Positions 1 through 21,959 of a DNA stretch of 21,959 nucleotides are shown here, in pieces; position 1 is the stretch's first letter, and each line of letters starts with the position of its first letter. The notes under the pieces were generated by a model that saw only the letters and a program-made list of their open reading frames with translations, ran no database searches and was not told the DNA's origin. The stretch lies in the IMG/VR virus record IMGVR_UViG_3300045988_117647, positions 1 to 21,959 of that record, one strand, 5' to 3'. The translations under genes and the position numbers were made by a program. Source of the DNA: a virus (Duplodnaviria > Heunggongvirae > Uroviricota > Caudoviricetes).

Positions 1-54
1 GTCATCGGGCATTATCTGAACATAAAACACTATCAATAAGTTGGAGTCATTACC
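1..54 (+). mobile_element. 3' terminal 54 bp of an IS1 element: end of insB (stop TAA at 36-38) plus right inverted repeat (about 32-54, reverse complement GGTAATGACTCCAACTTATTGAT); the rest of the element lies upstream of the window
   Basis: Sequence 1-54 (GTCATCGGGCATTATCTGAACATAAAACACTATCAATAAGTTGGAGTCATTACC) matches the IS1 terminus as I remember it, including the characteristic terminal GGTAATGACTCCAAC read on the complementary strand. Recalled, not searched. Confidence 0.8.
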
Positions 55-198
55 TACAACGGGAAAAAATTTACGTATCCGGTCGCTGATGAGTGGAGTT
101 GGTTTTATTGTTATTCAGAGCAATAAACATCTGATTTAATTTGTTGCATAATAGTAAAATTGCTGTTTATCTACATGTGGTAACTATTGATAATTATG

Positions 199-226
199 TT
201 GCTAATAATGTGTGCAAATTTATACT
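199..226 (+). promoter_or_regulatory. Possible sigma70-like promoter for the island-1 ORF (-35 TTGCTA 199-204, 16-nt spacer, -10 TATACT 221-226)
   Basis: Hexamers read directly; the implied leader to the ATG at 243 is very short and would overlap the AAGGTG RBS, so the call is weak. Read-through from IS1 is an alternative. Confidence 0.2.
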
Positions 227-242
227 GAAAAAGGTGAAAACG

Positions 243-2075
243 ATGAATGATATCTTTGTTCTTACAAGGGAAGAGCTTGAAACACTAGATTATAGTGTTT
301 TTATGCATATACCAGTTACATTTCATGCACATAAAATAAAAAAATATCTGGATGGGATTGCTGAATCATCAGAAAACCCCAAAGAGAAAAAATTAGCATC
401 TCTTTTTGGTATGCTATATAGTTTCAATTTGCAAGTTGTTAACAACACTCCATCATTTGAACCCCAAATGATTTGGGGTAATAAAAGATCAATATTGCCT
501 GAAGATTTTGATGAGCAGGTGAATGATTGTCTTTTATATGTTTCTCAAAAAATAACCAATCCATTTTTGTTATCAAGAATATATGATGTTGTTTGGTGTA
601 ATAATCGGAAAAATAAAGACGTGGCAATTAAAGCAATTGATTCCTATGCTGAAATGCTAAATATAGCAATTGAAAGACTAATAATAAAAAACGAAAGCAT
701 GGATGAAAGTGATTTAAATTGCTTTATTTTTGCTCGTGATTATATTGCTAGGGCTTTGCACATTAATAAAATGGTCTACCCTAGAAAATCAGAAGGAAAC
801 ATGGCGATTAAAAATGCCATTCATTCTCTTTATAGTATTCAAAATGAAAGATTAATCTTTGAAGGTTTCAATAATTTGACTTGGTTTATGGTGCGTGATT
901 TTGATGGGGATAATCTGCAGTATGCGGAAAATGCTGAGAAGATGGCTGAGCAGCATAAAGATAAAAAATATTATGATGCTGTAAAATCACTTTATATGAC
1001 AAGTGCAGTTATTTATGAAAAAAATGGTGAGTCTGAACGTGCCAAGAGATGTAAACTGGCATCTGCAAATATTACTATTAAAGTTGCAACAGATCGACCT
1101 GATAATATGGGTAAGATCTCTTGGTTAAGAACAGCTATCTCTGAATTAAGACAGTACGGTGGTGATAGCCAACAGATAGAAGATTTAAAGGAACAACTTG
1201 CTAATTTGAGAGAAGAAGTAAGGAGTGAATATGTCACTTTAAGCCATTCTATTGATATTAGTGACTTGGTTGCTGAAAGTGAAAAAAAACTGACGGGGCG
1301 TTCTTTGCCCGATATATTCAAAGTTTTAATGCGTGAAACACCGATTGAAAATATTGAAAGCATGAGGGAGCAAGTTTTAAGATTATCAGAAAAAAGTTTA
1401 TTCTCTAGTTTTGTTGGAACAGAAATTAATGATGAGAGTGGGCGTAAGGTATATACAATCCCGCCGTTGGATAATAAAAAAGATATGAGTGATGATGTTG
1501 TTATTGATCAATATCTAAGAAATTTCGAGATTACTCATAAGATTTTTGTAAACGGTGTCTTTGAACCTGCTCGCTATGTACTTTCTCAAGAACATGGCTT
1601 GACGTTGTCAACATTCGTTAAATTAGTTACAACTAGTCCAATTGTCAAGCCGGAGTTTAGGGAGATTTTTAATTTGGGCTTTTACAAATTATGGCAGGGA
1701 GATTACATCAGTGCAGCTTATCTTTTAATACCACAAATGGAAGGTATGGTTCGTTATTATTATGAGCTTAGTGGAAAGGATGCTACTAGATATTTGGATA
1801 AGGGATTAGAGGAGTCAACAAGTATTTCTCAGCTTCTAGATAAATGCAGAGATGATTTGGAAAGTATCTTTTCTAAGAATCTTGTTTTAACTATCGATGT
1901 TCTTTTTAATAGAAAGAGTGGGGCAACCTTAAGACATAAATTAGCACATGGTAATTTATATACTAATGCTTGTTACGATGAAACAACGACATATGCATGC
2001 ATCCTGATTTTCTTTCTGTGTGCTTATCCTCTCCTACCATATTTTGATACTGTATTTGAACAGGGCTCTGTTTGA
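243..2075 (+). CDS. Hypothetical 611-aa AT-rich cargo protein; candidate anti-phage or abortive-infection protein with C-terminal R-x4-H-G (HEPN-like) motif RHKLAHG at nt 1932-1952
   Basis: Long uninterrupted ORF (track 141-2075) in visibly AT-rich DNA. I take the ATG at 243 (MNDIFVL...), preceded by AAGGTG at 231-236, as the start. No Walker A/B or TOPRIM motif seen, so it is not an Old-type ATPase. Position is the old/tin locus of P2. Confidence 0.8.
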   Translation: MNDIFVLTREELETLDYSVFMHIPVTFHAHKIKKYLDGIAESSENPKEKKLASLFGMLYSFNLQVVNNTPSFEPQMIWGNKRSILPEDFDEQVNDCLLYVSQKITNPFLLSRIYDVVWCNNRKNKDVAIKAIDSYAEMLNIAIERLIIKNESMDESDLNCFIFARDYIARALHINKMVYPRKSEGNMAIKNAIHSLYSIQNERLIFEGFNNLTWFMVRDFDGDNLQYAENAEKMAEQHKDKKYYDAVKSLYMTSAVIYEKNGESERAKRCKLASANITIKVATDRPDNMGKISWLRTAISELRQYGGDSQQIEDLKEQLANLREEVRSEYVTLSHSIDISDLVAESEKKLTGRSLPDIFKVLMRETPIENIESMREQVLRLSEKSLFSSFVGTEINDESGRKVYTIPPLDNKKDMSDDVVIDQYLRNFEITHKIFVNGVFEPARYVLSQEHGLTLSTFVKLVTTSPIVKPEFREIFNLGFYKLWQGDYISAAYLLIPQMEGMVRYYYELSGKDATRYLDKGLEESTSISQLLDKCRDDLESIFSKNLVLTIDVLFNRKSGATLRHKLAHGNLYTNACYDETTTYACILIFFLCAYPLLPYFDTVFEQGSV

Positions 2076-2415: not shown

Positions 2416-3450
2416 TCAGCCGTTGTCTGTGTCCAGTGAGTAGTTTTTAAAGCGGATGACCTCCTGACCGAGCCAGCCGTTTATTTCCCGAATCCTGTCC
2501 TGTAGCGGGATAAGCTCATTGCGGACAAAGACCTTTGCCACTTTCTCAATATCACCCAACGACCCGACGTTCTCCGGCTTGCCGCCCATCAACTGAAAGG
2601 GGATGCGGTGCGCGTCCAGCAGGTCAGCGGCGCTGGCTTTTTTGATATTAAAAAAATCGTCCTTCGTCGCCACTTCACTGAGGGGGATAATTTTAATGCC
2701 GTCGGCTTTCCCCTGCGGGGCATAGAGAAACAGGTTTTTAAAGTTATTGCGGCCTTTCGACTTAACCATGTTTTCGCGAAGCATTTCGATATCGTTGCGA
2801 TCCTGCACGGCATCGGTGACGTACATGATGTATCCGGCATGTGCGCCGTTTTCGTAATACTTGCGGCGAAACAGCGTGGCCGACTCATTCAGCCAGGCAG
2901 AATTAAGGGCGCTGAGATATTCCGGCAGGCCGTACAGCTCCTGATTAATATCCGGCTCCAGCAGGTGAAACACGGAGCCGGGCGTGAAGGCTGTCGGCTC
3001 GTTGAAGGACGGCACCCACCAGTAAACATCCTCTTCCACACCACGGCGGGTATATTTTGCCGGTGAGGTTTCCAGTCTGATGACCTTACCGGTGGTGCTG
3101 TATCGCTTTTCCAGAAACGCATTACCGAACACCAGAAAATCCAGCACAAAGCGGCTGAAATCCTGTTGCGAAAGCCACGGGTGCGGGATAAACGTTGAAG
3201 CCAGAATATTGCGTTTGACGTAAATCGGTGAGCTGTGATGCACGGCAGCACGCAGGCTTTTTGCCAGACCGGTAAAGCTGACCGGTGGCTCATACCATCT
3301 GCCGTTACTGATACACTCGACGTAATCCAGAATGTCACGGCGGTCGAGTACCGGCACCGGCTCACCAAAGGTGAATGCCTCCATTTTCGGGGCGCTGGCG
3401 GTCATTGTTTTTGCCGCAGGTTGCGGTGTTTTCCCTTTTTTCTTGCTCAT
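2416..3450 (-). CDS. Q: Portal protein (P2 gpQ-like), 344 aa
   Basis: ORF length and N-terminus MSKKKGKTPQP match P2 Q; synteny with P; start ATG overlaps P stop (ATGA). Confidence 0.9.
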   Translation of the reverse strand: MSKKKGKTPQPAAKTMTASAPKMEAFTFGEPVPVLDRRDILDYVECISNGRWYEPPVSFTGLAKSLRAAVHHSSPIYVKRNILASTFIPHPWLSQQDFSRFVLDFLVFGNAFLEKRYSTTGKVIRLETSPAKYTRRGVEEDVYWWVPSFNEPTAFTPGSVFHLLEPDINQELYGLPEYLSALNSAWLNESATLFRRKYYENGAHAGYIMYVTDAVQDRNDIEMLRENMVKSKGRNNFKNLFLYAPQGKADGIKIIPLSEVATKDDFFNIKKASAADLLDAHRIPFQLMGGKPENVGSLGDIEKVAKVFVRNELIPLQDRIREINGWLGQEVIRFKNYSLDTDNG

Positions 3451-6308: not shown

Positions 6309-7382
6309 ATGCGCCAGGAAACCCGCTTTAAATTTAATGCCTACCTGTCCCGTGTTGCCGAACTGAACGGCATCGACGCCGGTGATGTGTCGAAAAAATT
6401 CACCGTTGAACCGTCGGTCACCCAGACCCTGATGAACACCATGCAGGAGTCCTCTGACTTTCTGACCCGCATCAACATTGTGCCGGTCAGCGAAATGAAA
6501 GGGGAAAAAATTGGTATTGGTGTCACCGGCTCCATCGCCAGCACCACCGACACCGCCGGTGGCACCGAGCGTCAGCCGAAGGACTTCTCGAAGCTGGCGT
6601 CAAACAAGTACGAATGCGACCAGATTAACTTCGATTTTTATATCCGCTACAAAACGCTGGACCTGTGGGCGCGTTATCAGGATTTCCAGCTCCGTATCCG
6701 TAACGCCATTATCAAACGCCAGTCCCTTGATTTCATCATGGCCGGTTTTAACGGCGTGAAGCGTGCCGAAACCTCTGACCGCAGCAGCAATCCGATGCTG
6801 CAGGATGTGGCGGTCGGCTGGCTGCAGAAATACCGCAATGAAGCCCCGGCGCGCGTGATGAGCAAGGTCACTGACGAGGAAGGGCACACCACCTCTGAGG
6901 TCATCCGCGTGGGTAAGGGCGGTGATTATGCCAGCCTTGACGCACTGGTGATGGATGCGACCAACAACCTGATTGAGCCGTGGTATCAGGAAGACCCTGA
7001 CCTTGTGGTGATTGTGGGACGTCAGCTACTGGCGGACAAGTATTTTCCCATCGTCAACAAGGAGCAGGACAACAGCGAAATGCTGGCCGCTGACGTCATC
7101 ATCAGCCAGAAACGCATCGGCAACCTGCCAGCGGTACGCGTCCCGTACTTCCCGGCGGATGCGATGCTCATCACGAAGCTGGAAAACCTGTCCATCTACT
7201 ACATGGATGACAGCCATCGCCGCGTGATTGAGGAAAACCCGAAACTTGACCGCGTGGAGAACTACGAGTCAATGAACATTGATTACGTGGTGGAGGACTA
7301 CGCCGCCGGTTGTCTGGTGGAAAAAATTAAGGTCGGTGATTTCTCCACACCGGCTAAAGCGACCGCAGAGCCGGGAGCGTAA
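6309..7382 (+). CDS. N: Major capsid protein (P2 gpN-like), 357 aa
   Basis: ORF length and position match P2 N; N-terminus MRQETRFKFNAYL. Confidence 0.9.
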   Translation: MRQETRFKFNAYLSRVAELNGIDAGDVSKKFTVEPSVTQTLMNTMQESSDFLTRINIVPVSEMKGEKIGIGVTGSIASTTDTAGGTERQPKDFSKLASNKYECDQINFDFYIRYKTLDLWARYQDFQLRIRNAIIKRQSLDFIMAGFNGVKRAETSDRSSNPMLQDVAVGWLQKYRNEAPARVMSKVTDEEGHTTSEVIRVGKGGDYASLDALVMDATNNLIEPWYQEDPDLVVIVGRQLLADKYFPIVNKEQDNSEMLAADVIISQKRIGNLPAVRVPYFPADAMLITKLENLSIYYMDDSHRRVIEENPKLDRVENYESMNIDYVVEDYAAGCLVEKIKVGDFSTPAKATAEPGA

Positions 7383-7385
7383 CCG

Positions 7386-8129
7386 ATGACGAGTCCCGCA
7401 CAGCGCCACATGATGCGGGTCTCGGCAGCGATGACCGCGCAGCGGGAAGCCGCCCCGCTGCGACATGCAACTGTCTATGAGCAGATGCTGGTCAAGCTGG
7501 CCGCAGACCAGCGCACACTGAAAGCGATTTATTCAAAAGAGCTGAAGGCCGCGAAAAAACGCGAACTGCTGCCGTTCTGGTTGCCGTGGGTGAATGGCGT
7601 GCTGGAGCAGGGCAAAGGTGCACAGGATGACATTCTGATGACGGTCATGCTGTGGCGTCTGGATACCGGCGATATTGCCGGTGCGCTGGAGATTGCCCGT
7701 TATGCCCTGAAGTACGGTCTGACCATGCCGGGTAAACACCGCCGCCCCCCGCCGTACATGTTCACCGAGGAGGTGGCGCTCGCGGCCATGCGTGCTCACG
7801 CTGCCGGTGAGTCTGTGGATACCCGCCTGCTGACGGACACCCTTGAACTGACTGCCACGGCTGACATGCCTGATGAAGTGCGCGCAAAGCTGCACAAAAT
7901 CACCGGTCTGTTTCTGCGTGACGCTGGTGATGCCGCCGGTGCGCTGGCTCACCTGCAACGTGCGACACAGCTCGACTGTCAGGCAGGCGTCAAAAAAGAG
8001 ATTGAACGACTGGAGCGGGAGCTGAAACCGAAGCCGGAGCCGCAGCCAAAAGCGGCCACCCGTACCCCGCGTAAGACCCGGAGCGTGACACCGGCAAAAC
8101 GTGGACGCCCGAAAAAGAAAGCCAGTTAA
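7386..8129 (+). CDS. M: Terminase small subunit (P2 gpM-like), 247 aa
   Basis: Length and synteny; basic, Lys/Arg/Pro-rich C-terminus. Confidence 0.85.
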   Translation: MTSPAQRHMMRVSAAMTAQREAAPLRHATVYEQMLVKLAADQRTLKAIYSKELKAAKKRELLPFWLPWVNGVLEQGKGAQDDILMTVMLWRLDTGDIAGALEIARYALKYGLTMPGKHRRPPPYMFTEEVALAAMRAHAAGESVDTRLLTDTLELTATADMPDEVRAKLHKITGLFLRDAGDAAGALAHLQRATQLDCQAGVKKEIERLERELKPKPEPQPKAATRTPRKTRSVTPAKRGRPKKKAS

Positions 8130-16766: not shown

Positions 16767-16815
16767 TGTGGTGCGAAAAGACCAATGAAAGTTATTGATA
16801 ATAAGGAGGAATCAA

Positions 16816-17598
16816 ATGTCAGGAATAAGATGGTTGGATAAAAAAGATTTAATTCTTAAAGGAATAAATGAAGGCACCTACCCAGAATCAGTTTACAAGT
16901 TCAGAACTATAGATAAAGCCAGTGATATTCTTCAAAAAAAGAATTTTACTTTTCATCAGCGGAAAATTTTAATGATCCATTTGATTGTATGCTGGATGAG
17001 GAAAAAGAATACTCTTTATCAGACTTTAATTGTTGGTTATATTTATATCAGAATGGATTAACCAAGAAGGCAAAGCAGAACTTAATAGATGTGTATAAAG
17101 AAAACAGCCAAGCATTTAATGATCTAGTTAAAAATATAAAAACAAAAGCCGTCAATGCCCATGGCATTTTATCGCTATCTAAAACTAATGAAAATATTCT
17201 TTTATGGTCTCATTATGCGGAGAACCATACCGGAGTTGCTATAAAACTCAATATTGCTAAGGATCCAGAGTTCTTTATAACCCCCCAAAACATAGTATAT
17301 GAAGCAATATATTCCATTAAATTATCTTAGAGACTCTAAAAAATCAATACTCGACACACTCTCTACGAAATCAATGGATTGGAATTATGAAGAGGAGATT
17401 AGAGTTTATAAAAGTAATATTGGAGCCTATAAGATTAAGCCAGAGGCAATAACTGATGTTTTTTTTGGTTTGAAAACGCTGGAACAGGATATTGCAAAAA
17501 TCAAAAATATATGTAGTGAAAATGGTCTAAGCCATGTGAAGTTTCATCGGGCTGAAAAAAAATATGGAGAATTTGCGCTACGTTTTAATCCTATTTGA
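16816..17598 (+). pseudogene. DUF2971-like gene interrupted by two compensating frameshifts (frame change within the A7 run at 16934-16940, then back between 17296 and 17330)
   Basis: Three ORF pieces (16795-17061, 16989-17330, 17299-17598) join into one DUF2971-like product: ...YKFRTIDKASDILQKK / EFYFSSAENFNDPFDC...LLWSHYAENHTGVAIK... / ...SMDWNYEEEIRVYKS. The first and third pieces share a frame. Family assignment is from recalled motifs. Confidence 0.6.
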
Positions 17599-20819: not shown

Positions 20820-21959
20820 CAATGTAAAATTACAGGTATTGCTCAGGGCTGTTGACCAGGCATCCCGCCCGTTTAAATCCATCCGCACAGCGAGTAAGTC
20901 GCTGTCGGGGGATATCCGGGAAACACAAAAATCACTGCGCGAGCTGAACGGTCACGCATCCCGTATTGAGGGATTCCGCAAGACCAGTGCACAGCTCGCC
21001 GTGACTGGTCATGCACTTGAAAAGGCTCGGCAGGAGGCCGAAGCCCTTGCCACACAGTTTAAAAATACCGAACGTCCGACACGTGCTCAGGCGAAAGTGC
21101 TGGAATCCGCAAAGCGTGCGGCGGAGGACTTACAGGCGAAATATAACCGCCTGACGGATTCCGTTAAACGCCAGCAGCGGGAACTGGCCGCTGTGGGAAT
21201 TAATACCCGCAATCTTGCACATGATGAGCAGGGACTGAAAAACCGTATCAGTGAAACCACCGCACAGCTTAACCGTCAGCGTGACGCACTGGCGCGTGTC
21301 AGTGCACAACAGGCAAAACTTAACGCAGTAAAACAGCGTTATCAGGCCGGAAAGGAACTGGCCGGAAATATGGCCTCAGTGGGCGCTGCCGGTGTGGGGA
21401 TTGCGGCGGCGGGAACGATGGCCGGAGTTAAGTTGCTGATGCCCGGTTATGAGTTTGCGCAGAAAAACTCAGAATTGCAGGCCGTGCTCGGAGTGGCAAA
21501 AGACTCCGCCGAAATGACCGCACTACGCAAACAGGCGCGCCAGCTCGGCGACAATACCGCCGCCTCGGCGGATGATGCGGCCGGTGCACAGATAATCATC
21601 GCGAAAGCGGGTGGGGATGTTGATGCCATTCAGGCGGCAACGCCGGTCACGCTGAATATGGCGCTGGCGAACCGTCGCACGATGGAAGAAAACGCCGCCC
21701 TGTTGATGGGGATGAAATCCGCCTTTCAGCTTTCAAACGATAAGGTCGCTCATATCGGGGATGTTCTCTCCATGACGATGAACAAAACCGCCGCCGATTT
21801 TGACGGCATGAGCGATGCGCTGACCTATGCCGCACCTGTGGCAAAAAATGCCGGTGTCAGCATTGAAGAAACCGCCGCAATGGTCGGGGCGCTGCATGAT
21901 GCAAAAATCACAGGCTGGACAATGGTTGGCTATCCAGATTCAGATACTATAGTTAGTAA
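20812..21959 (+). CDS. T: Tail tape measure protein (P2 gpT-like), 5' partial; the frame is still open at the window end
   Basis: ATG at 20812 (MSNNVKLQVLLRAVDQ...) overlapping the E' stop; Ala/Gln-rich coiled-coil-like sequence typical of tape measure proteins; no stop in frame through 21959. Confidence 0.85.
   Translation, partial: MSNNVKLQVLLRAVDQASRPFKSIRTASKSLSGDIRETQKSLRELNGHASRIEGFRKTSAQLAVTGHALEKARQEAEALATQFKNTERPTRAQAKVLESAKRAAEDLQAKYNRLTDSVKRQQRELAAVGINTRNLAHDEQGLKNRISETTAQLNRQRDALARVSAQQAKLNAVKQRYQAGKELAGNMASVGAAGVGIAAAGTMAGVKLLMPGYEFAQKNSELQAVLGVAKDSAEMTALRKQARQLGDNTAASADDAAGAQIIIAKAGGDVDAIQAATPVTLNMALANRRTMEENAALLMGMKSAFQLSNDKVAHIGDVLSMTMNKTAADFDGMSDALTYAAPVAKNAGVSIEETAAMVGALHDAKITGWTMVGYPDSDTIVS

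Follow-up and report, generated by a model that had tools for sequence, protein, structure and literature searches.

An IS1 end inside the gpA gene of a P2-like prophage, upstream of an unchanged hotspot cargo gene

The window, by which is meant the whole stretch of 21,959 nucleotides analysed here, is a P2-like prophage in which the 3′ end of gpA is followed by one cargo gene, cos, gpQ and gpP on the minus strand, and the late genes. It is a metagenome scaffold, and neither of its ends is a boundary of the prophage: one is a break that falls at a repeat, the other a chimeric join. At its left end lies the right end of the insertion sequence IS1, an element of about 768 bp whose transposase is encoded in two frames, insA and insB, joined by a programmed -1 frameshift. 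Positions 1-54 on the plus strand (GTCATCGGGCATTATCTGAACATAAAACACTATCAATAAGTTGGAGTCATTACC) correspond to nt 715-768 of the 768-bp element, the remainder of which lies beyond the window start; the numbering was read from the full IS1A copy annotated at 487-1254 (768 bp) of locus L004, which starts with GGTGATGCTGCC and ends with GAGTCATTACC. In a megablast search of 5,426 complete Escherichia coli genomes all 54 bases were identical to the IS1 right end (E = 3e-19), and positions 1-54 gave 71,069 matches in 4,959 of these genomes, with a median of 10 per genome. Among the top matches listed, identity was 54/54 and the matches lay under coding sequences annotated as IS1 family transposase, mostly IS1A or IS1B. 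The first 39 nt specify the last 12 insB codons (translated as VIGHYLNIKHYQ) and the TAA stop codon at 37-39, and the IS1A transposase gene of L004 stops at the base equivalent to window position 39. The right terminal inverted repeat, of 23 bp, occupies positions 32-54 on the plus strand and contains the insB stop; its reverse complement, GGTAATGACTCCAACTTATTGAT, agrees in 18 of 23 positions with the left repeat, GGTGATGCTGCCAACTTACTGAT, which is itself found both in L004 and at the end of another contig, L015, described below. The earlier note, which read these 54 bp as the right end of IS1 with the insB stop and the terminal inverted repeat, is thus fully borne out on this point.

The sequence breaks sharply at 54/55. 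Fifty-five IS1-free complete E. coli genomes match the window at 98.7–99.8% identity as far as position 2420, starting from position 55 or 59, while none of the 5,426 complete genomes spans 1-2420. In those IS1-free genomes whose annotation was read, a coding sequence annotated as 'replication endonuclease' ends at the base equal to window position 126, so positions 55-126 on the plus strand hold the final 23 codons of gpA (738-760, YNGKKFTYPVADEWSWFYCYSEQ) together with its stop, an orphaned 3′ remnant of this P2-like replication endonuclease gene. IS1 therefore sits inside gpA, 72 nt 5′ of its stop codon. Positions 55-242 had earlier been treated as plain upstream DNA; this has to be revised, as the first part of that interval belongs to gpA, which is the gene actually disrupted.

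Between the gpA stop codon and the cargo gene lies the native intergenic spacer, 116 bp on the plus strand (127-242) with 27% G+C, which is 100% identical to that of ten IS1-free loci. A promoter scan, which found 12 sites against 9.4 expected from shuffled sequence, placed in it a putative sigma-70-like site, TTGCTA-16-TATACT (199-226, plus strand), matching the consensus at 9 of 12 positions; a Shine-Dalgarno sequence, AAGGTGA, follows at 231-237 on the same strand. The cargo gene (243-2075, plus strand) begins at the ATG at 243, 188 bp from the end of IS1 and in the same orientation, in agreement with the co-orientation and the distance of about 190 bp given originally; the encoded protein has 610 residues, not the 611 then stated. 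A TTG start at 141, 15 nt after the gpA stop, which would give a protein of 643-644 aa and belongs to phage record ON470601 (vB_EcoM-569R9), was set aside for the ATG at 243, in favour of which stand the RefSeq annotation, a Pfam DUF7380 match that runs from residue 4, and the Shine-Dalgarno sequence at 231-237. An Rfam scan of positions 1-2500 returned only sub-threshold chance matches, for example to a retron msr (E = 0.6) on the minus strand across the junction, and short repeats within positions 1-320 were unremarkable.

The cargo protein matches the PADLOC defence candidate PDC-S39, with near full-length matches to both PDC-S39 models (4.7e-85 and 3.3e-84). Its N-terminus matches Pfam DUF7380 (2.4e-39). 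At the C-terminus, residues 524-590 resemble DUF4209, with a match that is sub-threshold (1.1e-3; 19.5 bits against a cut-off of 22.3), and within this stretch residues 564-569, RHKLAH, form an Rx4H motif that fits the Rx4-6H motif of HEPN proteins. DUF4209 (C6orf70-type) has been placed in the HEPN superfamily (Anantharaman et al. 2013, PMC3710099). In the literature consulted on the PDC-S39/DUF4209 family no experimental evidence of defence was found, PDC-S39 being named as a listed prediction, and a literature search for DUF7380 yielded no paper. The anti-phage role of PDC-S39 is that of a predicted candidate.

The gene occupies the gpA-gpQ interval, which is the anti-phage hotspot of P2 (Rousset et al. 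2022, PMC9122126). The arrangement here resembles that hotspot in having gpA, then variable cargo, then cos, here recognised by the P2 cos 19-mer GGCGAGGCGGGGAAAGCAC at 2227-2245, and then gpQ (2416-3450, minus strand) and gpP on the opposite strand. It differs in content: P2 itself carries orf91, tin and old, whereas the window has one plus-strand gene, encoding DUF7380 with a DUF4209-like C-terminus. Homology to P2 stops within the last ten or so codons of gpA, after ...PVADEW, at about window position 96/97. The left recombination boundary of the hotspot thus falls within the gpA coding sequence, and IS1 is about 40 bp to the left of that boundary, in the conserved flank.

Relatives of the window that lack IS1 show what the locus looked like without the element. 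An identical cargo protein of 610 aa is encoded on 21 contigs, and in the ten IS1-free loci shown from among these (L005-L014) gpA is intact, with 760-762 aa, and window positions 55-242 are 100% identical. The closest relatives are L009 (99.84% over 12 kb) and L010 (99.975% over 3.9 kb). In all the IS1-free loci read (L001-L003 and L005-L014) the cargo gene is the main gene between gpA and gpQ, with an additional 65-aa ORF called downstream of it in L014. The phage record vB_EcoM-569R9 likewise has the IS1-free order gpA, a gene annotated as DUF4209 domain-containing protein, a 65-aa hypothetical ORF, and gpQ. One IS1-free locus, L012, has just upstream of gpA an extra gene (6592-7599) for a 335-aa protein with a PAPS_reduct domain, and its 762-aa gpA has a different N-terminus; the early operon may have a further small region of variability at this site. 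Separately, several of the closest full-length relatives in complete E. coli genomes (H51-H56, H61 and H62) carry an insertion of the IS21-like element ISEc12 in the late region, and IS insertions appear to be common in this prophage lineage.

The window holds only one side of the insertion. Exact-pattern scans for the right junction, comprising the IS1 end and the gpA remnant, found it absent from the genome, metagenome and viral contig collections, and left-junction patterns with a duplication of 6-12 bp were absent from the genome contig collection. Junction proteins were therefore predicted for the left side by combining four gpA variants with a duplication of 7, 8, 9 or 10 bp, and seven of them were looked up by exact sequence. 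IS1 typically generates a target-site duplication of 9 bp. Just one of the seven exists among some 15 billion proteins: P0001, of 748 aa, from ENA and encoded on two contigs, which consists of residues 1-740 of the gpA type found in L009 followed by GDAANLLI, the in-frame translation of the IS1 left end as far as a TAG, and which implies a 9-bp duplication. The same protein set contained neither the 7-, 8- and 10-bp variants nor the 9-bp proteins built on the three remaining gpA types.

A contig that encodes P0001, L015, is a human-gut metagenome scaffold of 14,417 bp (ENA ERZ28596185, LIJU14-1_SAMEA2338682_METAG scaffold_2724), and carries gat genes, yegS, yegR, int, C, cox, B, small early ORFs and the truncated gpA. 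Its final stretch reads ...GCGACCGTAGAT TACAACGGG GGTGATGCTGCCAACTTACTGATTTAGTGTATGATGGTG, the last part being 39 nt of the IS1 left end, identical at 39 of 39 positions. The bases immediately before the duplication are GTAGAT, while the IS1 left end itself begins with GGTGATGCTGCC. Up to and including TACAACGGG, L015 is 99.92% identical to the IS1-free L009. The left copy of the 9-bp target sequence is at 12212-12220 of L015, and the right copy follows IS1 in the window at 55-63 on the plus strand; TACAACGGG is present in single copy in IS1-free loci. The two junctions come from separate contigs, the window and L015, which may stem from different samples or genomes. Together they show, at the level of sequence, the classical pattern left when IS1 inserts by simple transposition and duplicates 9 bp of its target. 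The check proposed at the outset, extension of the sequence upstream in search of a target duplication and a truncated gene, has thereby given a positive answer, albeit indirectly through L015. The accompanying view that the locus has seen recent mobile-element activity also gains support, from the complete identity of IS1-free loci over the adjoining 188 bp, the presence of the junction in 0 of 5,426 genomes, and the perfect 9-bp duplication.

As far as can be seen, the element itself is unexceptional. The likeness to IS1 extends to the right end (54/54), the left end on L015 (39/39), the imperfect repeats (18/23) and the 9-bp duplication, and in these visible parts, which comprise only 54 nt in the window and 39 nt in L015, no difference was seen from IS1 of the IS1A/IS1B/IS1R type of E. 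coli and Shigella. The insertion site alone is new, with no counterpart in the 5,426 complete E. coli genomes or in the collections of genome, metagenome and viral contigs.

The consequences for gpA can be judged by comparison with P2, to whose gpA the protein is 96% identical (732 of 761 aligned positions). The nick site of the P2 replication origin lies inside gene A, at nt 29892, and the surrounding 50 nt are found with 100% conservation at 11835-11884 of L015, about 340 nt to the left of IS1, so the origin is intact. The insertion takes away the 20 C-terminal residues of gpA, 741-760, and the bearing of this loss on function can be argued in two directions. The catalytic Pfam domain of gpA spans residues 133-462, far from residue 740, and the truncated protein could on this account still work; moreover, P2 and this phage are already unlike in their last 9-10 gpA residues, and to that extent the lost tail is unconstrained. 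On the other hand, the first 11 of the lost residues, KKFTYPVADEW (741-751), are common to P2 gpA. When the last 76 residues of gpA were compared by tblastn with deposited phages, 85 records were found, and in 83 of the 85 the alignment covered at least 80% of the query; among the alignments listed, most run through KKFTYPVADEW (query positions 57-67) and the others reach at least its last position. The aligned gpA records include those of Yersinia phages, at about 50% identity. Because the C-terminal alignments in deposited P2-like phages cover KKFTYPVADEW, the lost segment appears to be under constraint in viable phages. From these comparisons gpA is probably the casualty of the insertion, with impaired replication of the prophage the likelier outcome.

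It had been suggested instead that the cargo gene was the one affected, either because IS1 removed its native promoter or a partner gene, or because it came to be driven by read-through; a variant of this view would have it driven by a hybrid promoter made from the IS1 end. There is something to be said for this idea, in that IS1 is co-oriented with the gene and only 188 bp upstream, no plus-strand terminator is predicted within positions 1-242, so that an IS1 transcript could reach the ATG, and older literature describes the ends of IS1 as sources of -35 elements in hybrid promoters. The 116-bp spacer and 72 nt of gpA nevertheless intervene between IS1 and the cargo gene, both of them 100% identical to IS1-free loci, and no partner gene is missing by comparison with the IS1-free loci read. 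The proposed loss of a promoter or partner is contradicted by this base-for-base match of the spacer to that of IS1-free prophages, and the comparison indicates that neither is lost. Nor did the promoter scan give any promoter-like site spanning the IS1 junction, the best candidate by direct reading being TTGGAG (41-46) with an 18-nt spacer and AAAAAT, which matches at only 7 of 12 positions. In the IS1-free phage the cargo gene already lies directly downstream of the early operon, and IS1 now stands between the two; we infer that the element is more likely to cut early-operon read-through into the cargo gene than to add expression. A change in cargo expression by any of the routes suggested is unlikely, and in the lysogen the gene is probably still expressed from its own putative promoter.

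Two further explanations concern the junction itself. That it might be an assembly artefact, a chimeric join within a metagenome scaffold, is prompted by the behaviour of the window as just such a scaffold, the opposite end of which is demonstrably chimeric. There, at 21896-21959, the join falls in the tape-measure gene T, which follows its relatives exactly to 21916; the 21-mer ATGATGCAAAAATCACAGGCT (21896-21916) is common to gene T and to an unrelated AT-rich gene present in 65 contigs from human-gut metagenomes, and the final 43 bp (21917-21959) continue as that foreign gut-bacterial gene, with no match in E. coli genomes or viral contigs. The left junction is of a different kind: the join is exactly at the last base of IS1, without a shared k-mer across it, and on the independent contig L015 the opposite junction starts precisely with the first IS1 base and shows duplication of the same 9 bp. 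De Bruijn chimeras do not duplicate a target at the two precise ends of an element. An artefact is for these reasons extremely improbable. Slightly less remote, though still very unlikely, is a larger or rearranged element, such as a composite IS1-flanked transposon in gpA or an IS1-mediated deletion or inversion. Since 54 nt and 39 nt of the element are all that is visible, a composite transposon would yield identical junctions and an identical duplication, and IS1 is known to cause deletions in neighbouring DNA and to undergo recombination between its copies. Against this, both junctions were found, in prophage backgrounds that are closely related, and the 9 bp duplicated at one agree with those at the other, which is what marks an insertion without rearrangement; the parts seen give no hint of extra cargo.

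Two observations from the right-hand part of the window may be recorded here. The last 43 bp were considered as a possible second IS end, and this was ruled out once they proved to be the chimeric join to a foreign gene; because the right end is such a join, the truncation of gene T is not biological. There is also a second variable island, at 16795-17598, between the tail-fibre assembly gene G and the tail sheath gene FI, where the window has overlapping ORFs of 88, 113 and 99 aa and L016 has one ORF of 261 aa; their DNA shows 99.6% identity and 3 gap positions. A further 7 contigs, an NCBI genome assembly included, carry the 113-aa fragment, and the island has the look of a genuine allele with a frameshift and not of an assembly error.

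The reading we prefer, and regard as very probable, is that of a recent simple insertion of IS1, with a 9-bp duplication, into gpA of a P2-like prophage, leaving the cargo region unchanged. IS1 would have transposed recently into codons 738-740 of gpA, duplicating TACAACGGG, in the same orientation as gpA and the hotspot gene downstream. The target is the rolling-circle replication initiator of a P2-like prophage which, to judge from L015, adjoins yegS/yegR in an E. coli-like genome from a human-gut metagenome. The 760-aa gpA is replaced by a 748-aa product made up of 740 native residues and the GDAANLLI that the left end of the element contributes. On the right side of IS1 the sequence of the cargo gene, the 116-bp spacer, cos and the late genes is as it was, and any transcription from the early operon through gpA into the cargo gene would now have to cross IS1. 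The sequences show directly which element end is present, where it inserted, the duplication, the chimeric gpA product and the unaltered cargo region, while the effects on replication and transcription are inferred from them.

A more far-reaching consequence can be imagined, in which the prophage is 'grounded': with gpA crippled, and the hotspot gene and its putative promoter untouched, the prophage would lose its mobility and stay in the chromosome as a carrier of a HEPN-type defence candidate, and IS1, 40 bp outside the hotspot boundary, might also increase cargo gene expression or, at a later stage, bring about the mobilisation or deletion of that gene. This extension of the preferred reading is speculative and, in our estimation, unlikely.

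Under the simple-insertion reading, what happened at this locus is the ordinary insertion of a very well-known element into a prophage gene, and belongs to biology that is already known: the inactivation of prophage genes by IS insertions is a well-known route to prophage decay. Its significance is chiefly for annotation, in that the gene hit by IS1 is the replication initiator of the prophage and not the defence candidate. This copy of the prophage should be treated as possibly defective, and its cargo as an intact single-gene module with its own upstream region.
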